Shown here: one piece after another, positions 6,559 through 51,853 of the stretch | Layout: every line of letters starts with the position of its first letter | How positions within the stretch are numbered: the first letter of the stretch is position 1 | Virus record (IMG/VR): IMGVR_UViG_3300044998_000080 | Length of the DNA stretch: 51,853 nt | DNA from: a virus | Direction: 5' to 3' (one strand) | Program-made: the position numbers and the translations under genes | Notes under the pieces: model-generated | Told to the model about the DNA's origin: nothing | The model's database searches: none | The model's input: only the letters and a program-made list of their open reading frames with translations

Positions 6559-7154
6559 GAATTCCTCGACAAGACCTCTTCGGGGCTCGGCTCGTAGGTC
6601 ACAACGGTTGCGCCAGGGTAAACACGATGCGGCTCGAGGCGCTCGAGATACTTCAGACCGATCCCGATCGCGTCGATCACGTTGTGTCGCAAGCTCTTCG
6701 GCGTCGGCTCGATTCGGCTCGCTTCGCCTTTCGAAAGTCGGGCCTCGATTCGGCGAATCATCGTGTCGCCGTCGATCGTGCCCTTCCAGTCTCGCGGGAA
6801 GTAGCGAACACGAACCTCGGCCGCAACGACCGAGCACGCGAGCGCGTAGGCTACGCCAGCGAGAGCAATCAGATCGTTCTGATCGCCTTTCTGGCGCGCG
6901 GCCGGGTACACGCGCGGGATCTCGACAACGACGACACGAACGCGCCGAGCGTCGACGTTGAGCCAGCGGTGAAGCGCTTCGCACGCGGCGAATGCGACGG
7001 CCGGATCGTTGTCGCTCTTGATCGGGTTGCGGATCAAGGCCGCTCGGCCGAGCGAATTGTTCACGTCGAAATCGTCAAGAGGGTGAAGGTCGGCCTCTTG
7101 CGAGAAGAGAGCCGCGCCGAAGTGACGCACGCCAGGATCGATCGAAAGAATCAC
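6555..7154 (-). CDS. RuvC-like Holliday junction resolvase
   Basis: N-terminal ILSIDPGVRHFGAALF (RuvC DPG motif). GTGA overlap with the upstream stop. Confidence 0.75.
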   Translation of the reverse strand: MILSIDPGVRHFGAALFSQEADLHPLDDFDVNNSLGRAALIRNPIKSDNDPAVAFAACEALHRWLNVDARRVRVVVVEIPRVYPAARQKGDQNDLIALAGVAYALACSVVAAEVRVRYFPRDWKGTIDGDTMIRRIEARLSKGEASRIEPTPKSLRHNVIDAIGIGLKYLERLEPHRVYPGATVVTYEPSPEEVLSRNS

Positions 7155-7756
7155 CCGAGCACCTTGTGAGCCGCGTCGCGGAAGTATTCGCGCAAGTCGT
7201 CGAAGCTCGTGCGATGAATGCCGAGGTCGGAATCAACGCGGCACCAAGCGTGCTCGAGCGCTTCGGTCACACCGAGCGGCGCGGTCGGCATGTTCCACGC
7301 GCGCGGCGGCGGCCCGAGAAGCAACCAACGTTCGACGTTGCACGACTCCACGTCGATCATGCGAACGGCGGCGAGTTCGTCGGCGTCGACGTTGATCGAG
7401 AAGCGCGCGCGAATGCGGTTGTCGATCTCGGCCTCGAGCTTTCGATATTCCTCGAACACGAACGTTCGCTTCACCGGGTTCGCAACGTCGTTGAGGAACG
7501 CTTCGCCGAAGTCGTGCGCCAGGGCCCAACGGCGCGCTTGCTCGCTCAAGCCGAGTTCACACGCGGCGTGCCACACGATCATTGAATGCTCGGCGACCGA
7601 GTAGAAACGTGAGGTGCGGCCCGTGTAGCGGCACAAGAAACCGAGCGCGTGCGTCACGTCGTCGATCTGAATTTGCTCGAGTTGCAGATCGAGCGGCGTG
7701 ATCATCGGTGCCGACTCGGTGCCCTGGATCCATGCGTCTTTCGCGACTTGGTTCAC
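7151..7756 (-). CDS. HD-domain phosphohydrolase (YfbR/5'-deoxynucleotidase-like)
   Basis: SVAEHSMIVWH...LAHDFGEAFLNDV. GTG 7756 is preceded by GAAAGG. The track ORF extends to 7810. Confidence 0.75.
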   Translation of the reverse strand: MNQVAKDAWIQGTESAPMITPLDLQLEQIQIDDVTHALGFLCRYTGRTSRFYSVAEHSMIVWHAACELGLSEQARRWALAHDFGEAFLNDVANPVKRTFVFEEYRKLEAEIDNRIRARFSINVDADELAAVRMIDVESCNVERWLLLGPPPRAWNMPTAPLGVTEALEHAWCRVDSDLGIHRTSFDDLREYFRDAAHKVLG

Positions 7757-11520: not shown

Positions 11521-12069
11521 TCACTTCTTCGAGAGCAGCGCGCGAAGCTCGGCGATCTCTTCGGCCGTCGCGGCGTAGGGACGCCAGTTGTACCCGGTGA
11601 AGGGCTTGCCAGCGTTCGGCCCACCCTTGATCGGCTTGCGGAAGGTCGCCACGCGAACGGGGCGGCCCGTGTAGGGCTGATCGTTCCCGACGGCCTTCTT
11701 GATCTCGCCCGCGAACCACGTCGGATCCGCGTCGGCCTCGGCCTCGGCCTTCCCGAGAAGAGCGCAGAGAAGCGCCTTCGCGTTGCCCTGGCCGGTCTGC
11801 TTACCAATGTCGGTGATGAACACCGCATCGGAATTGACCGGGTTCGGCGTCGGCGCGGCCTCACCGGGCTTCAACATGTTCGCGTCGACCGACACGGCGG
11901 CCGCCTCGATCACGTAGAACTCGGCCTTGAACCAGACCTCGGAACCCTTCACGCTCGGCTCGATCAGGAGCTTGCGCACGGCGACCGTGTATTCACCGTC
12001 GCGGATCACGTTACCGCCCGCGTTCGCCTTCGCCTTCACGATCTTGTCAACGTAGCTCGAAACGTCCAT
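11521..12069 (-). CDS. DUF669-like protein, possible ssDNA-binding protein
   Basis: 182 aa. The GEYTVAVRKLLIEPSVKGSEVWFKAEFYVIEA pattern recalls DUF669. Good SD (AAAGAGGAAG). Sits in the replication-module context. Confidence 0.4.
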   Translation of the reverse strand: MDVSSYVDKIVKAKANAGGNVIRDGEYTVAVRKLLIEPSVKGSEVWFKAEFYVIEAAAVSVDANMLKPGEAAPTPNPVNSDAVFITDIGKQTGQGNAKALLCALLGKAEAEADADPTWFAGEIKKAVGNDQPYTGRPVRVATFRKPIKGGPNAGKPFTGYNWRPYAATAEEIAELRALLSKK

Positions 12070-12120: not shown

Positions 12121-12309
12121 TCAGGCTCGCGCCCGAAACTTGTTGCGCTCTCGCTCGGTGAGCTTGAGCGCTTGAATCAGATCCGCGCCCGTGTGCTCGT
12201 AGATCCGACAACGGGGCGAGTGCCACGAAGCGATCCAGCAACCGAGCCAGCGAAGCGCGTTGAGCATGTCGAGAGTAATAGTTAGTTTTCGATCGGGCGT
12301 CAAGCTCAA
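12121..12309 (-). CDS. Hypothetical small protein
   Basis: 62-aa ORF. TTG start in a TTGA overlap with the helicase stop. Confidence 0.4.
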   Translation of the reverse strand: MSLTPDRKLTITLDMLNALRWLGCWIASWHSPRCRIYEHTGADLIQALKLTERERNKFRARA

Positions 12310-14321
12310 TCGTCAAGATCCCACGTTTTCGAAGCGAAGTTCAGACGTTGCGGCGTGCTCGTCGTCGTCTCGGCGTAGCGGGCTTGAGCTTCGGCTTGAG
12401 CAATGTCGCTCACGAGTTCGGCGTGATAGCGGTAGAACTCGGCCGAAACCTCGTCGGCGGGTTGCCCTTCGCGGTGCGTGCGGCCGAGAAGTTGTTCAGT
12501 CGTCTTGCCGTTCGACGGCGGGTGAACAATCAGGTTTCGCGAGAAAGCATATTGAAGGTTCTTGCCTTCGCCGTGCGCCTTGATCGACGCGAAGATCGAG
12601 CGGTCGCCTTTCTCGAGAATGATCGTCGCGCTCGCTTCTTTGCCCCCAGGGAAGAAACCGAAGTTGAGTTTTTGTTCGCGCGCGATTTGTCGGGCTCGAG
12701 TCATGAACTCGTCGTGTTCGAACCAAACGATTCCCGGTTGAGTCTTCGCCCATTCGATCGAATCACGCACGAGCCAATCAGAGATCCAAACGGCCTCGGT
12801 CTCGGGTTGGACGGTCTTGTGAACGGCCTTCCACGCGAGCCAGTGTTGAGCGGCGAACACGGGAAGCGGCCCGTTGCGTGTTCCTGGCGGGAAGAACTTT
12901 CGTTCACCGTTCACGTCGGCGTGATAGCCCTCGAACCAACGAATCGCGGCGCGCGTCACGTTGCCCGGTGAATCGTAGTTTTCGCGCGGGTATTGAAGCT
13001 CGGCGCGGATCTCGGCGCGCCATGCCTTGCGCAGCTTGAGCCAGGTCTTGATCTGATCGACGGTCTCGCCTCGAGGGTAGCGCCAACGGTAGAAGAATCC
13101 CGACGCGACCTGACGCACGCAACGCGCGATCTCGAGCACCTCGATCAATTCTTCGCCGTCGGGTCGTTGCTTCAACTCACGAACGAAGTTCACACACTTC
13201 GAGATCAGATTTGCTCTCGAGCCGTTCTCGAGCCACGTCACGAACTCGGGCGCGAGCTTCGGCACGCTCTCGGCGTCGACGGCGGCCGGAATCATGACAC
13301 GGCGTTCCGAGAGCACGAGCGAGCACTTCAGCGGTGAGTCTTGCGTGACGATCACGCCATGAACCGAGGTGAACCGCCGTTGAAAGAGCAATCGCGCGCG
13401 CTCGGTGTCGTCGGCGTGCTTTCGGATCTCGTCGGTCGCGAACACCGAGAACGCCTCGAGCAACGAGCCAGGGTGTTTCAAAAACGGTTGCGTCGAACTC
13501 ACGGCGTCGAGAGCGGCGGCCCATTCGTCGGTCGTCGGCGGGTGAATCGGGAGCGGTGACCGCTCACGCATCGCGAGCGCGGCAAGGTGCGCGTAGTCTT
13601 TCAGGCTTCGCGTTGTGAGCGTGCCCGAGAGCGCGGCGAAACGGGTGTTCGGGAGCTTCGCGAACGCGCGAAGGAATCGAATCGTTCGCGCGGCACTCGG
13701 ATCGCGCAAGTTGTGAGCTTCGTCGGCGATGATCAGATCCACATGAGGGATCCGCGACAAGAGATCGGAATTCTTGAGCGCAGAAAGCTCGTGATAGGTG
13801 ACAACGTGAAGCGTCGGGCGGTTCTCGAAGAACTCGCGACCGAGGTTCGCGGCGAGGTTCGGCGTTCGAAAGTGTGCGGACCATTGCGGATAGTCGCGCA
13901 TGAGGAATTGCGGCTTGAGCGAGGGCGGGATCAGCAACACGGCCGTTCGCACGCCTGGGATCGCCATAGCGAGCAAAATATCAATACCCGTCTTGCCGTC
14001 GCCAACACCGATCGAGGCGAGCAAGCCTCGAGCGTCGCTCGCTTCCTCGAGAGCCCACCCTTGCACGGGGCGCAGATCGGTAATGCATCGGCCCCAACGA
14101 GCGACGCAATCACACGGCGTCGTGCGTTCGCGCCGAAGGTGTTTTGTCCAAAGCTCGGCGGCGAGAGGGTCGCGAACGTTGAGTTCGCGCGCCTCGAGCG
14201 CGGCGATCCGCGTGAGGTCTTCGCTCGGCCCGACGGGTTGCCCCTGGCGAAAGCGCGCAACGGGTCGACCGTCGCCTTTGGACGCGGCGAGATCAAAAGC
14301 CAGATTCGGATCGAACTTCAC
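12306..14321 (-). CDS. SNF2/DEAD-like superfamily 2 helicase
   Basis: GVGDGKTG (Walker A), LIIADEAHNL (DEAH box), ALSGTLTTRS, and C-terminal LLGRTHREGQ. GTGA overlap at the start. Confidence 0.85.
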   Translation of the reverse strand: MKFDPNLAFDLAASKGDGRPVARFRQGQPVGPSEDLTRIAALEARELNVRDPLAAELWTKHLRRERTTPCDCVARWGRCITDLRPVQGWALEEASDARGLLASIGVGDGKTGIDILLAMAIPGVRTAVLLIPPSLKPQFLMRDYPQWSAHFRTPNLAANLGREFFENRPTLHVVTYHELSALKNSDLLSRIPHVDLIIADEAHNLRDPSAARTIRFLRAFAKLPNTRFAALSGTLTTRSLKDYAHLAALAMRERSPLPIHPPTTDEWAAALDAVSSTQPFLKHPGSLLEAFSVFATDEIRKHADDTERARLLFQRRFTSVHGVIVTQDSPLKCSLVLSERRVMIPAAVDAESVPKLAPEFVTWLENGSRANLISKCVNFVRELKQRPDGEELIEVLEIARCVRQVASGFFYRWRYPRGETVDQIKTWLKLRKAWRAEIRAELQYPRENYDSPGNVTRAAIRWFEGYHADVNGERKFFPPGTRNGPLPVFAAQHWLAWKAVHKTVQPETEAVWISDWLVRDSIEWAKTQPGIVWFEHDEFMTRARQIAREQKLNFGFFPGGKEASATIILEKGDRSIFASIKAHGEGKNLQYAFSRNLIVHPPSNGKTTEQLLGRTHREGQPADEVSAEFYRYHAELVSDIAQAEAQARYAETTTSTPQRLNFASKTWDLDD

Positions 14322-14563
14322 GAGCCCCTCTCGAGCTTCTCAAGGTCGAAGTGTTTCGACCAACCAACGAAACCGCACGATTCACAACGATACTCGCGCG
14401 CTTGCGACGACATGCGCGCGTTTCGATTCGCGCGCACCTCACGCTTGCCCCCGGTGAGCTTGACGTGAAAACGCGAGCCCTCGGGCCAACGTGCGCCGCT
14501 TCGACGGCACCTCGAACAACGGAAGTTGATCGGGCACCCGGTGCCCGCGTTCGTTCCCGGCAT
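14318..14563 (-). CDS. Zinc-ribbon protein
   Basis: 81 aa with CPINFRCSRC ... CESCG. Its ATG directly abuts the 3' end of the tRNA-like gene. Confidence 0.5.
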   Translation of the reverse strand: MPGTNAGTGCPINFRCSRCRRSGARWPEGSRFHVKLTGGKREVRANRNARMSSQAREYRCESCGFVGWSKHFDLEKLERGS

Positions 14564-14651
14564 TGTCGACGGAAGGGATTCGAACCCTTCAAGCTCTCTC
14601 GAGCAACCGAGGGTGCGACCCTCGTGCGGTTTCCAGTTACGCCACGTCGAC
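14564..14651 (-). tRNA. Atypical type-II (long variable arm) tRNA-like gene, apparent anticodon CGC
   Basis: Fold: GTCGACG-TG-GCG-TAACTGGAAAC-CGC-A-CGAGG-GTCGCAC-CCTCG-GTTGCTCGAGAGAGCTT-GAAGGG-TTCGAAT-CCCTTC-CGTCGAC-A. U8, A14 and G18G19 are present. 6-bp T stem. Confidence 0.55.
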
Positions 14652-14656
14652 GAAAA

Positions 14657-14681
14657 CCGCGCGGGCTCGCGACCCGCGCGG
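14657..14681 (-). terminator. Intrinsic terminator upstream of the tRNA-like gene
   Basis: 9-bp GC stem CCGCGCGGG/CCCGCGCGG with a 7-nt loop. On the minus strand it is followed by TTTTC. Confidence 0.6.
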
Positions 14682-14686
14682 GTGCT

Positions 14687-14956
14687 TCACCGCGAAATGT
14701 AGCCTTCGGCCTCGAGCATGTCGAAGAGCGACATTCGCTCGAGCCGAGCGTTCGCACGCTTCGCGGCCTTCTCGGCGTGCTCGCGCATTTCGCGCTCGAG
14801 ACGAACGCGCCCGTCTTCGCTCACGTTCGCCTGACCTCGGATCGTGAACGTGTACCACGGGGCGGGCTCATGAAACCGAGACGAGACCGGCGCGCCGTTG
14901 AGCCGAGCCCGCTTGCGCTTTTGGTAGCGCGTCGTGATCTTCGCGGCCTCGCTCAC
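14687..14956 (-). CDS. Hypothetical basic protein
   Basis: 89-aa ORF. GTG start in a GTGA overlap. Confidence 0.5.
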   Translation of the reverse strand: MSEAAKITTRYQKRKRARLNGAPVSSRFHEPAPWYTFTIRGQANVSEDGRVRLEREMREHAEKAAKRANARLERMSLFDMLEAEGYISR

Positions 14957-15084: not shown

Positions 15085-15311
15085 CGTCGGAAGCGCGCGC
15101 GCGCATGATGCACGAGCGGCGAGCGGCCCGAGTAGATCAGGCGACCGCCACCGATGCGGCGCGGCGCGGGGAACGGGTTCGAGCCCCGCGCGGATTGCGC
15201 GCGGAAGATCGACGAACGAAGCTCGTAAGCCTTCTTCTGCTCACCGCGCTTCTCGAGCCCGAGCGCGATCGCGAGAAGCGCGCCGAGATTGAAACCTCGA
15301 ATGCCCTTCAC
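15081..15311 (-). CDS. Hypothetical small protein
   Basis: GTG 15311 forms a GTGA overlap with the nuclease stop. Translation: VKGIRGFNLGALLAIALGLEKRGEQKKAYEL... Confidence 0.4.
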   Translation of the reverse strand: MKGIRGFNLGALLAIALGLEKRGEQKKAYELRSSIFRAQSARGSNPFPAPRRIGGGRLIYSGRSPLVHHARARFRR

Positions 15312-17137
15312 CGACGACCTCGGATCACCAACGAGGCGAGGCCCGAGAGCGCCTCGATCACCGGCTCGGCGAGGTCGCTCGAGTAGATCGAGCACAAGCC
15401 CGACGGCGGCGACTCACGCGCGGCGGCGGCGAGAGCCCCGCGCCACGCCATGAACGCCAACGGGTTGTCTTTCGGCGCGAACCGCACGTCGGGAACGTTC
15501 GCGCTCTTCGCGAGGTTCTCGGCCAGGTCGGCGACGTAGGGCGTGAGGTCGGTCGCACCGACGCTCGGGGCGCAGTCGACGCACAACACGAGCCCGTTGA
15601 AGAGGCTCGCGCTCGCTTCGCCCGTGGCGATCGCCTCGGCGGCCGCGCTCGCGTTCTTCGAGCCCTTCGGCCGACCGCGACCGCGCTTCGCGGGCTCTTC
15701 GGGAGCGGCGGGCGGCGGCACGTTCGAGCCCGTCGCGGCGATCGCGGCGTTCGGCGAAACGGCGGCGGGCGGCGCGCTCGCGGCGAGTTCTTCGGGGTTC
15801 TTCGCGGCGGGCGGTTGATCGGGCGGCGCGACCGCGTTCGGCACGTCGACGATCAGCATTCGACGCGCGGGCTTCTCGGGCGCGGCGGGCGGCGTGCTCA
15901 CGGCGGAAGCCGACGCGGGCGGCGAGAGCGGCGGCAAGCCGAAGTGAGCCCGGCTCGTGTCGTCGTCGGTCACGTCGATCACTTCTTCGGTGAGCCCGAC
16001 GCGCGCGGGCGAACCGTCAGGCTTCGAGAAGAAGCCACCCGTCGGCGAGAGCGCCTCGAGGCGAGCGAGACCGCCCCCGCTCGGGAGCAAATACAGCTTG
16101 CCCGAGACCGCGTTCGCAACGGCGAGACGCACGAGACCGCCCGACGCGGCGGGAGGTGCCGACGCGGGAGCCGTCGCGGGAGCGACGACGGGCGGCGGCG
16201 AGTTCACGGCGGGAGCCGTCGCGGGAGCGGCGGCCGGGGTTGACTTCATGGCGCTTCGAACGGCGTCAACGAGACCCATGTTCGGATCTTCCTTCAAGGT
16301 AATCCCAGGGCGGGGCACGCCTGGGATCAGGGTTTGCGCGAAACGTCGCGCGGGCGCATTCGGGCATGTCGACAAGAAATCGCACCCGCCGAATTTCGAG
16401 CACGAATCTTCTCTTGCTGCAACTTCGAGATCAACGAGTCGCTTCGCGGCCTCTTGCATCGGCCCGTCAACAAGAGAGCAGATCTCGGCGAAGCGGTCAA
16501 GAATATGTTCGCGATCGAGTTCGACCGGAACCGCAAACGCGAGACGCGGCCCTTGCGTTTGGTGGTTATGGTGCGCGAACAAAACACTCTTCGCGCTCGG
16601 CCAGCGCATGAGGCACCAAGCCGCATAGACGATCGCTTGATCGTCGGTGCGAAGCTCTTCCTTTGTCTCGGCGTAGAGTTCGAGATCCTTCCTGAACTTG
16701 TGATCGATCACGATCGCTTGCCCGGCCTGGATCACGTCGGGCGGGAGAATGAGATCGGAATAACCGACGAACTCAACTCCTTTCGGCGTGAAGAGAGTCG
16801 GGTTCGTGATCGCGGCCTCAACGAGCAACGGGCCCTTTTGAAACGGCGCGTGCGGCACGTAAGGTTCGAGCAACTCGCTACCCGAGCGCGCAAGCGGCCC
16901 GCGCACGTCTTCACCCGTGAGCAAGTAATGTTCGATCTGTTTGTGCCCCGCGTCGCCGATCGCCTGACCTTTCGAGGGTGGCTTTTTCGGAAGGTGCGCG
17001 CGTTTGTCGTACCACCATTTTCGAGCGCAATCGCGAAACGCCTTGATTTGAGTCACTGAAACTCTTACGAGGCGGCCGTTCTCGATCGAGGCACGGCGCG
17101 AAGCGCGGTCTTCTTTCTTCACCGGGGCGTCGGTCAC
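15308..17137 (-). CDS. Cas4/RecB-like PD-(D/E)XK nuclease fused to a Pro/Ala-rich linker, an AT-hook and a C-terminal domain of unknown function
   Basis: TQIKAFRDCARKWWY, GYSDL...VIDHKFRKD, DQAIVYAAW, CSKFGGCDFLSTC. Then ~200 aa of P/A-rich sequence, then KRGRGRPKGSKN. Confidence 0.75.
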   Translation of the reverse strand: MTDAPVKKEDRASRRASIENGRLVRVSVTQIKAFRDCARKWWYDKRAHLPKKPPSKGQAIGDAGHKQIEHYLLTGEDVRGPLARSGSELLEPYVPHAPFQKGPLLVEAAITNPTLFTPKGVEFVGYSDLILPPDVIQAGQAIVIDHKFRKDLELYAETKEELRTDDQAIVYAAWCLMRWPSAKSVLFAHHNHQTQGPRLAFAVPVELDREHILDRFAEICSLVDGPMQEAAKRLVDLEVAAREDSCSKFGGCDFLSTCPNAPARRFAQTLIPGVPRPGITLKEDPNMGLVDAVRSAMKSTPAAAPATAPAVNSPPPVVAPATAPASAPPAASGGLVRLAVANAVSGKLYLLPSGGGLARLEALSPTGGFFSKPDGSPARVGLTEEVIDVTDDDTSRAHFGLPPLSPPASASAVSTPPAAPEKPARRMLIVDVPNAVAPPDQPPAAKNPEELAASAPPAAVSPNAAIAATGSNVPPPAAPEEPAKRGRGRPKGSKNASAAAEAIATGEASASLFNGLVLCVDCAPSVGATDLTPYVADLAENLAKSANVPDVRFAPKDNPLAFMAWRGALAAAARESPPSGLCSIYSSDLAEPVIEALSGLASLVIRGRR

Positions 17138-17570: not shown

Positions 17571-17812
17571 GCGCGGGCCTCGGGAAACGCGTTGCGTGAG
17601 AGGTTCGCCTTGATCGCGTAGTCTCGAGCGTTTCGAATTTGCTCGATCAACGCGCTCGCCTGATCCTCGTCGAGAATCATCGCGGTTCCGAGTTCTTCAT
17701 TCTCGAGCACGACGACGATCGCGGTTTTCGGCCGATCGTCTACCGTGATTTCGCTCGCGATCACCTTGATCGATTCCATGAGCCGAGCGGGCTTGTTGTT
17801 ATCATCACTCAT
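17567..17812 (-). CDS. Hypothetical acidic protein
   Basis: 81-aa ORF. ATG start overlapping the primase stop by 8 nt. Confidence 0.55.
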   Translation of the reverse strand: MSDDNNKPARLMESIKVIASEITVDDRPKTAIVVVLENEELGTAMILDEDQASALIEQIRNARDYAIKANLSRNAFPEARA

Positions 17813-20432
17813 GAGCTTCTTTCCTCTCGCTGATTACCGAGTTCTCGGTGTGAAGTTTCGTGCGAATCGCGCCAACGTCGCCGATCTGAAGTCGCTCAAC
17901 CCAATTCAGGATCAAGCCCGCGTCGATTCGGTGGAACGTGATCGACTTGCCTTGAACGATTGCCGATGCGCCCTCGTGCGAGAGCGAGCGCAACGCGCGG
18001 CCGAGTTGCGCGGCCGTCGGCACTTTGACCGAAGGCACGTAGCGCAACCAATGCGATTCTTTCGCGAGCGCTTCGGTGTTGACCCACACTTCGCCCGAGC
18101 CGAACATGACAAGCGGTGTCGGGATCGGCGCAACGTCGGCCAGGTAGCGAGCGAGCCATTCGCACACGAGCGACGCCATACCCGCGCCCGTTGCGAGGTG
18201 TCGATGAAACTCGCTGGCGTTGCCTTCGACGAGAAAACGCGCGCCCTCGTTGACCGTGCGATTCGCTCGCAACCAAAGCGAGTGTTCGGCGATCATGTCG
18301 TGCTCGATCCAGCGAGTGATCGTCGGCGGCCCGCCGATGCTCTCGAGGTATTCCTTCGGCCGGTTGTCGGATCGCAAGTAATAGATGCGGCTCGCGATCG
18401 CCTCGAGGTCATTCGCCGAAAGCTCTTCGCCCGTGTCGAGAAGCCGATCGTTATTGCCCGCGATGATCACGCGCACGGCACCCTCGAGCGGTGCGGTCGG
18501 GAGAAACTTTCGATTCAGGGTGCGTTTCGTCGACCCGATGAAACGACGAAGCTCGGCCGTGATTCCCTTGCGCGTAGGAAGCGCTTCGTCGGCCAGCACG
18601 AGCGGACACGCGATCAACGACTCGTTGAATCCGTCGAGAACGCGCGCAAGCTCACTCGGCCCGCCCGTTGTCCAAAGGCGAGCGAGACCCGACGCGAGAA
18701 GCGTTTTCCCGATTCCGCCCGGCCCGTCGAGATACACGGCGCACGACTGACGATCGAGACGAGAAGCGGTCGCGACCCAATCGAGCAACCGCAACGAGGG
18801 ATCGAGCAAGCGAAGCCACATGTCGACTTGCTCGTGAAAGCGCGGCTCGAGTCGGCGGATTGGTGTCGTCGCCTCGAAGAACGTTTGCGAGGTCGGCTCG
18901 TAGTAGCTTCGTTGCAGCGAGAGCGACGCTTCTACCTGACGCGCAACGGTCGAATAGTCGTGAAGGATCGCGCGCACCTCACGCATTCGCGTATTGCCCC
19001 GCTGATCGGTCGCGAAGAGCGAAACGGGAGCGCGGGCCAGGTCACGCACGATCGAATGCTCGAGGTTCGAGCGCGGGATCGGCGGGAGGTAGCGACCCTC
19101 AACGAAAATGTAGAACGAATCAGCCCGCGCGATGATCCATCGGCGTTGGAAGTCGAGAACGTCGACGCACCGTTGAGCCCGAGCCCATTCGGCAAGCTCG
19201 CTCTCTTCGTAGGGCCCGATCACCGTCGGCGCGGCCGAGGTCTCGAGCGATTCCGAACTTCCTGGCGCGTCGCCCGTCGGCGTGTTCGAGGTCGCGACCC
19301 GATCGGGAATGTGACCCGAGCGAGCGGCCTCGGCGCGAAGTCGACCGAAGATTTCCTCATTTGTTGCGGCTCGCGCGGCGTCGTGAGCGATCCGACGCTC
19401 GAGCGCGCGATCGAGCTTCTTTCGGGCCTCTTCGTGCCAATCTTCGAGTTCGCCCGAGGGAAGGATCTTGCGCTCGAATCGACCGACGCTCTCGGCCAGG
19501 ATCGCGAGAAGTACACCCGTCGGGATCGTCGGCGGAACCGCGAAGCGTGCGGCCGCACACAAGCGGTTCAAGGTGTCGTCGCGCGAACCCTCTTCGGCGA
19601 GTTGCTCACCCTTGAGAGCGCGCTTGATCAGGTCGGCGTTTCGCCCGCCCGCGCTCGAGAGCAGCTTGCGAACGTGCTCGAGATCGACGGGTTGATCGTG
19701 CGCGGCGTGCGCGGCGGCTCGAGCTTCGGCGATCTTCGAGTCGGCGATCTCGCTCGCCCGCGCGGTGATCAGCAAGGCGCGCGATTCGGTCAAGATCTCG
19801 TCGACGTTGAGCGGCGCGGTTCCGTCAGTCGTCGCGGCGAACGTCAACGCGTCGGGCGGCGCGGCCGGGAGGTAATAGAGGCGCGCGGGATCTTTGGTGC
19901 TCGGGTCGTTGTAGAAGCCGAACCGCTTTTCGACACCCGCTCGAAACGGCACGTTCTCGGCCGGGAGCAACGGGCGCGAGAGTTTGAACGCGATTCGACA
20001 CTTCGGGCGTTCGGGGTTGTAGCGGTAGCTTGAATGCACAACGGCGGCGACGCCTGACGATTCGATCGACTCGAGCACGCGGCCGAAGGTCTCGGGATCG
20101 ATCGGCTCTTTGGGCGCTCTCTCGTCGAGATCGAACACGCCAACGGTCACACGTTCGACGTTCACCGCGAGACGCTTCGAGCCTGGCTTGAACTCGGCCG
20201 GAACCCACGCGGGCCCGCTCTTGCCCGAATCCGTTGAGCCCGTGCCTTTGCACGCATCACACCCGGTGCCCGCGCCTTCACACCTCGGGCACGGGAGCGA
20301 CGGGCGGCGATCGTGGTGAAGCAAAAGCGCGGTGAGGTCTTCCCACGGGAGCGCGATCGGCTTCGGCTGATTATCGCGCTCGTGATCGAAGAGCGCGAGC
20401 GTAATTTGATCGGTCATGGGCGGGCGGCTCAC
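17805..20432 (-). CDS. Primase-helicase (AEP prim-pol domain + D5/P4-like SF3 helicase)
   Basis: VGVFDLDE and VVHSSYR (AEP-like). YLDGPGGIGKTLLA (Walker A) and PLVLADEAL (Walker B). N-terminal CPRCEGAGTGCDACKGTG. Confidence 0.8.
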   Translation of the reverse strand: MSRPPMTDQITLALFDHERDNQPKPIALPWEDLTALLLHHDRRPSLPCPRCEGAGTGCDACKGTGSTDSGKSGPAWVPAEFKPGSKRLAVNVERVTVGVFDLDERAPKEPIDPETFGRVLESIESSGVAAVVHSSYRYNPERPKCRIAFKLSRPLLPAENVPFRAGVEKRFGFYNDPSTKDPARLYYLPAAPPDALTFAATTDGTAPLNVDEILTESRALLITARASEIADSKIAEARAAAHAAHDQPVDLEHVRKLLSSAGGRNADLIKRALKGEQLAEEGSRDDTLNRLCAAARFAVPPTIPTGVLLAILAESVGRFERKILPSGELEDWHEEARKKLDRALERRIAHDAARAATNEEIFGRLRAEAARSGHIPDRVATSNTPTGDAPGSSESLETSAAPTVIGPYEESELAEWARAQRCVDVLDFQRRWIIARADSFYIFVEGRYLPPIPRSNLEHSIVRDLARAPVSLFATDQRGNTRMREVRAILHDYSTVARQVEASLSLQRSYYEPTSQTFFEATTPIRRLEPRFHEQVDMWLRLLDPSLRLLDWVATASRLDRQSCAVYLDGPGGIGKTLLASGLARLWTTGGPSELARVLDGFNESLIACPLVLADEALPTRKGITAELRRFIGSTKRTLNRKFLPTAPLEGAVRVIIAGNNDRLLDTGEELSANDLEAIASRIYYLRSDNRPKEYLESIGGPPTITRWIEHDMIAEHSLWLRANRTVNEGARFLVEGNASEFHRHLATGAGMASLVCEWLARYLADVAPIPTPLVMFGSGEVWVNTEALAKESHWLRYVPSVKVPTAAQLGRALRSLSHEGASAIVQGKSITFHRIDAGLILNWVERLQIGDVGAIRTKLHTENSVISERKEAHE

Positions 20433-32522: not shown

Positions 32523-33355
32523 TGAATCGGGGCGCATTCAAGGCACTCGTGCAAGCGGGCGGCGCACAACGCGCGCGCGTAGCGCTTCCGAAAATGGCGC
32601 TTCCGACGGCGCAAGCTCGGCGCTACTCGCGCGCGTTGCGCGGGAAACTTCTCGCCGACGCTCTCGCGCTCGTGCGCGCGAAGCTCGTGCCGAAGCTCGA
32701 GGCTCTCGCCGAGAACACCTCGAAGATCGCAACGAGCGTTCGCACCGACGCCGACGAGATCGGGAACACTCTCGACGAGATTCAAACCGAGTTTCTTTCG
32801 AAATGGTCGCGTCGACGAATGACCTCGCTCGTGCGCCCGGTCGCCGAAGAGATCGAGCGCTTTCACGCGACGCAACTCAACCGCTCGTTGCGCGCGGCCG
32901 TCGGTGTTGACGTGGTTGGGTCTGAACCCTGGCTCGAGAAATCGATCGACGAGTTCACGGCCGAGAACGTCGGCTTGATCAAGTCGATCCCGACGCGGTT
33001 CTTCGACGACCTCGAGACGAACTTGAAGCGTGAACTCGCCGACGGTGCCCGCTGGGAAGAACTCGCGGGAATCGTAGAAGAGCGCTACGGCGTCGCTCAA
33101 TCACGCGCGGAATTGATCGCGCGCGATCAGGCGGGAAAGTTCTTCGGCGATCTCAACCGAGTTCGTCAGGGCGACCTCGGGATCGAGCGCTTCACATGGC
33201 GCACGATGCACGACAACCGAGTTCGTGAAGAGCACGAGGCGCGAGACGGCGAAGCGTTCGCTTGGAACGATCCGCCCGACGGTGAGACACCGGGCGAGCC
33301 CGTGTTGTGCCGCTGCTACGCCGAGCCCGACCTTGCGGGCTTGCTCGAAGACTAG
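32513..33355 (+). CDS. Head morphogenesis protein (Mu F / SPP1 gp7 family)
   Basis: C-terminal FTWRTMHDNRVREEHEARDGEAFAWNDPPDGETPGEPVLCRCYAEP. Confidence 0.8.
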   Translation: MDMMNRGAFKALVQAGGAQRARVALPKMALPTAQARRYSRALRGKLLADALALVRAKLVPKLEALAENTSKIATSVRTDADEIGNTLDEIQTEFLSKWSRRRMTSLVRPVAEEIERFHATQLNRSLRAAVGVDVVGSEPWLEKSIDEFTAENVGLIKSIPTRFFDDLETNLKRELADGARWEELAGIVEERYGVAQSRAELIARDQAGKFFGDLNRVRQGDLGIERFTWRTMHDNRVREEHEARDGEAFAWNDPPDGETPGEPVLCRCYAEPDLAGLLED

Positions 33356-51431: not shown

Positions 51432-51853
51432 ATGGCGCTCGAGGCGATCAACGATCACGTCAGTCAAGCTCTCGCGCGGCTCGAGTTGCAGTTTCGCGAC
51501 TCGGCCGACGTGCTCGGGATCACGAGCGCGCTCGCCCTCGAGGTGCAAGCGCTCGAAGACGCGTTTCAGCAACTCAACACGTTGTTTCGCTCGGTCAATG
51601 CCGCAACGGGCGCGACACTCGATCGCATTGGCGAGATCGTCAACGCACCCGCTCGGGGTCTTCGAGACGACGCCGAAACGCGAACGATGCTCTATGCGGC
51701 GATCTCGCGCAACGTGTCTTTCGGTCGCGTCGAAGACTTTCTGACCGTGCTCAATAGCATTCTCGGCGGCAACTATTGGGATCGCCCCTTCGCGATCGAC
51801 GCGAACGATACGTTCACGGGCCCGTCAGGAGCGAAGGGCGGCGATCAGGTTCT
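51432..51853 (+). CDS. 5' part of the wrap-around baseplate / fibre-attachment gene (continues at 128..350 after collapsing the overlap)
   Basis: ATG 51432. No stop before the window end. Same frame as ORF 21..350. Confidence 0.6.
   Translation, partial: MALEAINDHVSQALARLELQFRDSADVLGITSALALEVQALEDAFQQLNTLFRSVNAATGATLDRIGEIVNAPARGLRDDAETRTMLYAAISRNVSFGRVEDFLTVLNSILGGNYWDRPFAIDANDTFTGPSGAKGGDQV
51727..51853. repeat. Terminal direct repeat, identical to 1-127
   Basis: See the first feature. Confidence 0.9.

Follow-up and report, generated by a model that had tools for sequence, protein, structure and literature searches.

A tRNA-Leu-like element directly before a start codon in the replication module of an uncultured phage, and its possible role as operon punctuation

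The locus considered here raises the question of what a phage could use an 88-nt tRNA-shaped gene for, when its anticodon position reads CGC without the identity of an alanine tRNA: does the RNA decode GCG, or does it serve another purpose? The window, meaning the whole stretch of 51,853 nucleotides that was analysed, is the complete-looking record of an uncultured phage (51.9 kb, 62.6% G+C), and an exact direct repeat of 127 bp at its two ends (1-127 and 51727-51853) fits a terminally redundant or circularly assembled genome. The tRNA-like gene occupies positions 14564-14651 of the minus strand, within the replication module. In the order of transcription, this module comprises a primase-helicase (17805-20432), a PD-(D/E)XK exonuclease (15308-17137), an 89-aa gene (14687-14956, minus strand) stopping just short of a terminator-like hairpin with a U-tract (14652-14681, minus strand; the hairpin itself 14657-14681, with 10 pairs, 9 of them G-C), the tRNA-like gene, an 81-aa zinc-ribbon gene (14318-14563, minus strand), a DEAD/SNF2-type helicase as the downstream gene of the unit (12306-14321, minus strand), a 182-aa ORF without a family match (11521-12069), a canonical phage tRNA-Gln(UUG) (11250-11322, minus strand) and, last, a family-A DNA polymerase. 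The U-tract reaches within one base of the 5′ end of the tRNA-like gene (UUUUC, then G1). At the other end, the zinc-ribbon ATG at 14563 adjoins the discriminator base without any spacer, and the stop codon of the zinc-ribbon gene overlaps the GTG of the helicase gene (GTGA). The tRNA-like gene exactly fills the gap between the terminator hairpin and the zinc-ribbon ATG, which is the setting that the first-pass annotation had described, and no convincing promoter was found between the hairpin and the element.

The only other tRNA in the window, tRNA-Gln(UUG), was called by ARAGORN and scored 60.9 bits with Rfam, and it agrees with the preference of the phage for CAA over CAG. In this 62.6% G+C genome, CAA was counted 247 times and CAG 100 times, in a greedily chosen ORF set that may hold some wrong-strand ORFs. 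A weak match to the Rfam Twister-sister model was also noted at 32604-32697 on the plus strand, just downstream of a tandem-repeat head-module gene, and is probably due to chance (25.4 bits against a cut-off of 34, E = 0.3).

The element is, with high confidence, a genuine gene for a tRNA-shaped RNA of class II. With its default thresholds, ARAGORN reports it as tRNA-Ala(cgc), 88 nt, at 14564-14651. The Rfam tRNA model RF00005 matches it over model positions 1-71 with 35.5 bits, above the curated cut-off of 29 bits, which places it structurally in the tRNA family; the E-value is 6e-6 in a search of 401 nt and 1.9e-7 for the whole phage record, and clan competition picked tRNA and not tRNA-Sec. 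The minimum free energy (MFE) fold is likewise a cloverleaf (-39.1 kcal/mol, z = -2.97), with 1 of 200 shuffles folding as well. The cloverleaf gene of the first-pass annotation is therefore borne out on this strand by ARAGORN, by the covariance model and by the fold. On the other hand, the ARAGORN call by itself is weak evidence. Composition-matched random sequence (10.4 Mb) gave nine false calls, or about 0.045 per window, all nine of them long-arm types of 79-97 nt, and at 90% thresholds long-arm calls flooded G+C-rich coding DNA and were excluded as evidence. Furthermore, whole-window Rfam runs failed to report the element, which means that its detection hinges on the speed filters. Such observations would be expected if a chance cloverleaf had arisen in G+C-rich DNA with no real feature behind it, yet this explanation is extremely improbable, because the covariance-model score, the 24-27 base pairs without mismatch and the way in which the element exactly fills a non-coding gap argue jointly against chance, as do the consensus T arm and a Leu-type D arm common to the element and a related phage described below.

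Read along the minus strand, the element consists of the acceptor 5′ strand (14651-14645), U8 and G9 (14644-14643), the D arm (14642-14626), A26 (14625), the anticodon-position arm (14624-14608) with the loop GUCGCAC (14619-14613), a variable region of 18 nt (14607-14590) with a 4-bp GCUC/GAGC stem, the T arm (14589-14573) with the loop UUCGAAU, an extra C (14572), the acceptor 3′ strand (14571-14565) and the discriminator A73 (14564). All seven acceptor pairs are Watson-Crick, U8, A14 and G18G19 are present, the 3-bp D stem closes an 11-nt loop, and CCA is not encoded at the 3′ end. The features listed in the first-pass annotation (7-bp acceptor, U8, A14, G18G19, 3-bp D stem, variable arm and T loop) were thus all recovered, and its reading of the anticodon loop, with a G32 and a C38 able to pair, holds both in sequence and in the fold. 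Its T stem of 6 bp holds in part: a sixth pair can be drawn, but the same letters equally give a 5-bp stem and one unpaired C, which is how ARAGORN presents them. An additional base of this kind is seen in 25 of the 229 sampled phage tRNA calls as drawn by ARAGORN, so the feature is not unique to this element. Alternative folds with 8/4, 9/3 or 8/5 stems, or with a shifted anticodon stem, were inspected and do not pair.

Judged from its letters, the body of the element is specifically a Leu-type class-II body. In its D arm, U8-G9 is followed by a GCG/CGC stem of 3 bp and a loop of 11 nt that contains AAYUGG; this layout, together with A73, is that of phage and bacterial tRNA-Leu and not of tRNA-Ser, which has G73. 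Among 229 phage tRNAs, five of the seven best D-arm matches were tRNA-Leu, and all sampled phage tRNA-Leu genes carry A73, in keeping with the discriminator A73 pointed out at first. The wobble pair G3:U70 is the identity element of AlaRS. In the acceptor stem of the element, 3:70 is C:G and no G:U pair occurs, so tRNA-Ala was rejected and the CGC anticodon indeed stands without alanine identity; the same failure applies to the look-alike in the related phage L004, because neither of the two has G3:U70. LeuRS, an enzyme not known to read the anticodon, takes the identity of its tRNA from A73 and the core. According to one report, the recognition elements of LeuRS include base A73 (PMC2377443). 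The element has the A73 and the D arm and core of a tRNA-Leu, with CGC where a leucine anticodon (NAG or YAA) would stand. Several other assignments were considered and rejected. An allo-tRNA with 8/4 or 9/3 stems does not fit an acceptor of 7 bp, which U8 cannot extend by pairing with the C that precedes its 3′ strand, or a T stem of 5 or 6 bp. For tRNA-Sec, 8/5 stems, a 6-bp D stem and UCA would be needed, in place of the 7-bp acceptor, 3-bp D stem and CGC found here. A tRNA remnant at an attP or integration site was set aside as well, the cloverleaf being of full length and situated in a replication module, and the record having no match to a tyrosine integrase.

Relatives of the locus were sought at several levels. 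By blastn against cultured phages, the locus gave no match and the 88 nt gave T-arm fragments only. One uncultured Caudoviricetes record, with 35% identity, was found by tblastn with the helicase. The helicase as a single-protein query in viral contigs returned no close relatives, an exact search for the T-arm/acceptor pattern no match, and a search of contigs from metagenome-assembled genomes two distant matches only. The closest protein relatives were helicases with 69-78% identity (P0002-P0005) and a zinc-ribbon protein with 89% identity (P0123). At the DNA level, the closest relative compared is L196, a metagenome contig of 1980 nt whose helicase N-terminus is 76% identical to that of the window. 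The order of stop codon, hairpin, U-tract, tRNA-like element and ATG is the same there as in the window, and the upstream gene is homologous to the 89-aa gene, both reading HEPAPWYTF by eye, from which it follows that the two elements occupy the same slot. The L196 element itself is 79 nt long; its D arm is degenerate, and the arm in the anticodon position folds into a closed helix under a GAAA cap, with no anticodon loop. It lies below the Rfam tRNA cut-off, its best match being tRNA-Sec with 23.6 bits, and it can barely be aligned to the window element despite the 76% identity of the helicases.

A second look-alike is present at 7376-7455 of L004, from a phage whose helicase shares 41% identity with that of the window. 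It shares with the window element the D loop AACUGGAA, GGGUCGC in the anticodon position and A73; an ATG stands one base past its 3′ end, and its D arm is identical at 18 of 19 positions to that of a phage tRNA-Leu(CAA). Position 37 is a pyrimidine (C37), and the MFE fold has a 6-bp stem closing a 5-nt loop. Rfam gave no match at all for this element, and a search with the combined D-loop and anticodon pattern gave 114 matches, all of them due to chance except L004 itself. Just 5′ of it, at 7290-7372, a T-arm and acceptor remnant or a mini tRNA-like fold can be drawn (GGGGUUCGAUUCCCC followed by CCGAGGCCA), called by neither ARAGORN nor Rfam. In L008 and L077, an 87-nt long-arm element has a 6-nt loop in the anticodon position. 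This element, which also has an 8-nt T loop, is the third of three tRNA-shaped elements arranged back to back at 5936-6178 of L008, a segment identical in L077; an anticodon arm is absent from the first, which matches both mascRNA (32.5 bits) and the tRNA-like domain of tmRNA, and the second is a tRNA-Met (39.3 bits). In L002, about 400 nt of non-coding structured sequence (6595-6990) lie 5′ of a tRNA-Gln, and positions 6635-6726 within it can be drawn as a tRNA-like fold of 92 nt, whose acceptor stem has 8 bp and whose T stem has 5 bp, a call that ARAGORN makes at lowered thresholds only.

With its ATG at +1 after A73, the window element shows the arrangement of a tRNA-like processing element, namely a tRNA shape abutting a start codon. 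[quoted passage not shown] It is the true start, since the 11 residues of the N-terminus, MPGTNAGTGCP, are invariant across three database homologues of the zinc-ribbon protein. The segment encoding them lies at 14530-14563 on the minus strand, and the homologues are only 53-89% identical overall; a GGGCAC/GUGCCC hairpin can be drawn over the codons of GTGCP, and part of the constraint on this N-terminus may therefore act at the level of RNA. A tie between the tRNA-like element and the zinc-ribbon gene as such was rejected, as no tRNA-like element was found upstream at six homologous zinc-ribbon loci in other phages. There, the gene closely follows another ORF, with an SD-like GGAGG or GGAGA before the ATG in at least three.

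Similar junctions recur among related phages. In L196, the conserved helicase start MKFDP lies directly at the 3′ end of the tRNA-like element, while in L002 the canonical tRNA-Gln abuts the ATG of a following ORF of 734 aa, the size of a polymerase, and a tRNA-Pro (L041) and a tRNA-Met (L013) abut an ATG likewise. Counted over distinct genes, and taking only an ATG that opens an ORF of 60 aa or more, 6 of the 16 tRNA or tRNA-like genes at the helicase-related loci (window, L196, L002, L041, L013 and L004) are followed after 0-1 nt by such a start without a Shine-Dalgarno sequence, against 2 of 215 in the unrelated phage loci sampled. The enrichment (Fisher p ~1e-6) is only indicative, because these loci are relatives of one another and were compared with an unmatched set. 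Encoded CCA is missing in 15 of the 16 genes of the group.

A further pattern concerns the anticodon-position arm, whose G+C-rich hairpin core in the window fold is GGGUCGCACCC (14611-14621, minus strand), a motif that recurs in tRNA-shaped RNAs of IMG/VR. The core GGGUCGCNCCC was found 14-32 nt 5′ of a consensus T arm at 27 IMG/VR loci. With the loop relaxed to GGGU-NNNN-CCC, IMG/VR gave only 108 matches, in 67 sequence clusters. The triplet CGC occupies 16 of the 67 clusters where about one would be expected (binomial p ~2e-14, and ~4e-6 even at a background of 6%), AGC occupies 5, and every other triplet 4 or fewer. The hairpin caps the anticodon-position arm of differing tRNA bodies (L202, L205, L206, L211, L215, L218, L220 and L221), whereas in L199 and its relatives, a prophage-associated family of 118-122 nt, it sits in an enlarged variable region. 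The fifth base of the loop can be A, C, G or U, and the first base after the U is C or A. Such recurrence suggests a sequence-specific interaction. A role of GGGTCGC at the level of DNA was rejected for this genome, where the word is not enriched (15 found, 19 expected). As to the prophage-derived family (L199 11620-11738; L200, L201, L209, L210, L212-L214, L216, L217, L219 and L288), its members score 45-48 bits with the Rfam tRNA model, and their acceptor stem, D arm and T arm are canonical. The closing bases of their anticodon-position hairpin covary around a CGC/CGU triloop, two further hairpins stand before the T arm, one of them with GGGGU(C/A)GCGCCCC, and the sequence after the 3′ end is ATGATGG in most of the family.

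Several explanations of the element have to be weighed against these observations. The first-pass annotation had considered that the RNA, once charged, could insert a residue other than alanine at GCG, with a tRNA-like decoy or processing element as the alternative. A working GCG decoder would be matured, charged (by LeuRS through A73 and the Leu-type body, or with alanine by some other route) and used on the ribosome, either to supply a tRNA for the commonest codon or to mistranslate. GCG is in fact the commonest codon of the phage, with about 60 per 1000 codons and 51% of the alanine codons, which would suit a supply tRNA, and the fit of tRNA-Gln(UUG) to the CAA preference makes codon supply a plausible logic. 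The nominal loop of 7 nt has U33 and A37 and could still open in the window element; tRNAs with strong G-C anticodons tend to have pairable bases at 32 and 38. LeuRS identity, moreover, has its basis in A73 and the core. Irregular long-arm tRNAs can follow their identity elements when they decode, as allo-tRNAs show (PMC5389517). Nevertheless, decoding in either variant is improbable. A decoding loop has a pyrimidine at 32, U33 and a purine at 37, and the element carries instead G32, a base seen in 12 of 222 ARAGORN calls even though that sample was enriched for it. Pairing is possible between G32 and C38 and between U33 and A37, and in the MFE fold the arm is a 7-bp stem with a CGC triloop. 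Likewise, L004 has C37, L008 and L077 have the 6-nt loop, and L196 has a GNRA cap (GAAA) in the same slot. In regard to charging, alanine is not expected without G3:U70, and we know of no route by which this RNA would receive it, while a leucine-charged reader of the top codon would place leucine at ~6% of all codons and so damage the proteins of the phage itself. The anticodon-position arm being probably closed, the RNA is probably not a GCG decoder. For these reasons the insertion of a non-alanine residue is unlikely, and the alternative of a decoy or processing element is the better reading, its processing part being supported by the ATG junctions without Shine-Dalgarno sequences.

The element could also be a decaying pseudo-tRNA, that is, a former phage tRNA-Leu (or tRNA-Ser) with a mutated anticodon that drifts without function, its position at the ATG reflecting tight packing. 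The turnover in the slot, where the window and L196 elements have diverged so far beside similar helicases, and the marginal Rfam scores (35.5 bits here, tRNA-Sec at 23.6 bits in L196 and nothing in L004) would agree with decay. On the other hand, decay would break helices first, and here all 24-27 pairs are intact and the T loop and G18G19 are consensus. Moreover, L196 preserves the order of terminator, U-tract, tRNA-like element and ATG, junctions of this kind are over-represented in the group and the hairpin is a recurrent motif, so we hold this scenario to be unlikely. Somewhat less doubtful, although still a minority view, is a trans-acting tRNA mimic or decoy, in which the excised RNA would act through its Leu-type body and the GGGUCGCNCCC hairpin by occupying or inhibiting a host factor. 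Candidate targets would be a tRNA-directed defence nuclease, a pentad-specific toxin RNase, LeuRS or a modification enzyme, and such a role is compatible with processing. The excess of GGGU-CGC-N-CCC before a consensus T arm and its presence on otherwise unrelated tRNA bodies speak for it. Related to this, phage tRNAs have been reported to counter tRNA-cleaving defences (PMC10264068, PMC11464382, PMC11555353), and the toxin MazF-mt7 cuts U^CGCU (PMC5408214), which makes it a lead, and only a lead, as a reader of the hairpin. Against a mimic stand the variation of the fifth loop base and of the first base after the U, the L196 element that occupies the same slot without the motif, and the tentative nature of any link to a nuclease; no common neighbouring protein was found next to the hairpin-bearing elements. 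A paper on Schlafen defence, considered for a possible link to type-II tRNAs, held nothing specific. In its most far-reaching form, the GGGU(C/A)GCNCCC-capped arm would be a selected ligand for a host factor, presented by a wide and so far undescribed range of phage tRNA-shaped RNAs with several different bodies, and the window RNA would be both a counter-defence decoy and operon punctuation. The factor could then be an anticodon-arm nuclease, a MazF-mt7-like pentad toxin RNase or a reader of Ala-type anticodon loops, but this version is speculative and unlikely to be correct.

The best reading, in our opinion, is that the element descended from a class-II leucine tRNA and punctuates the replication operon. 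The specific proposal of a tRNA-Leu-derived, non-decoding element whose excision by RNase P and RNase Z releases a leaderless mRNA has about an even chance of being right. The parts gripped by tRNA-processing enzymes have been kept: the acceptor stem, which is perfectly paired, the T arm, and the D arm, whose G18G19 forms the elbow. Precursors without CCA are substrates of RNase Z, whose cut after the discriminator leaves a 5′ phosphate on the trailer. On transcripts predicted to read through the upstream hairpin and U-tract, RNase P would cut at G1, and RNase Z would then cut directly after A73, because no CCA is encoded. The downstream fragment would start with 5′-phosphate-AUG and serve as a leaderless mRNA for the zinc-ribbon protein, with the helicase translationally coupled, and the RNA, once excised, may in addition act in trans through the recurrent hairpin. 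Leaderless mRNAs are apparently made elsewhere in this phage too: six copies of a cassette were found in which a hairpin is followed by TTGACA-N17-TATCTT-N6-ATG, with putative promoters standing 6-7 nt 5′ of the ATG. The junction pattern, the conserved slot and these cassettes support punctuation. Points against it are that the upstream hairpin and U-tract look like an efficient terminator with no convincing promoter after it, that the loci behind the junction statistic are interrelated and their comparison set is unmatched, and that the recurrent hairpin suggests a sequence-specific role beyond a pure processing signal.

If operon punctuation is true, this phage lineage would punctuate with tRNAs as well as with their look-alikes, and host RNase P and RNase Z would make AUG-first mRNAs for it in the style of mitochondria. 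It would also explain phage 'tRNAs' that are senseless as decoders, and would warn against inferring codon reassignment or mistranslation from the anticodons called by ARAGORN. A limited literature search gave no report of tRNA punctuation making leaderless mRNAs in phages, and no paper on the ATG-junction pattern or the hairpin motif for phages.

Among known systems, mascRNA/MEN-beta (RF01684) resembles the element as a non-decoding tRNA-like RNA excised by RNase P and RNase Z, a processing proposed for the element, but it is eukaryotic, lacks a normal anticodon arm and matches the element with 17 bits over the T/acceptor half only. The acceptor and T helices sum to 13 bp in tRNA-Sec, as they would in the element if its extra G-C pair forms, and the variable arm is long in both, whereas bacterial tRNA-Sec has 8/5 stems, a 6-bp D stem and UCA, none of which are found in the element. 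Closer parallels exist with the allo-tRNAs of soil bacteria and phages, whose acceptor and T stems are of the 8/4 or 9/3 type, whose identity is mostly that of Ser (G73) or Ala (G3:U70), and some of which are thought to be non-translational (PMC5389517; PMC7609411). They share with the element the long variable arm, an anticodon that mismatches the identity elements and an origin in metagenomes or phages; they differ from its 7/5+1 (or 7/6) stems, A73 and Leu-type D arm. Class-II tRNA-Leu (RF00005) itself is alike in U8-G9, in the 3-bp D stem and 11-nt loop with A14, A15, YU and G18G19, in the long variable arm with a stem, in A73 and in the consensus T arm, and the missing CCA is seen in the phage's own tRNA-Gln as well. 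Unlike a tRNA-Leu, the element has CGC in place of NAG or YAA, a pairable G32 and C38 and an extra nucleotide or sixth pair, and is probably not a decoder. Finally, in plant mitochondrial t-elements and in mitochondrial tRNA punctuation, cuts by RNase P and RNase Z define mRNA ends (PMC1920247; PMC3790967). The likeness lies in a tRNA shape within a longer transcript, with a predicted 3′ cut that would here fall exactly at the AUG. The differences are that an organelle is replaced by a bacteriophage, and that the element has a full cloverleaf with a class-II arm. All considered, the element would work most like a t-element or a punctuation tRNA.
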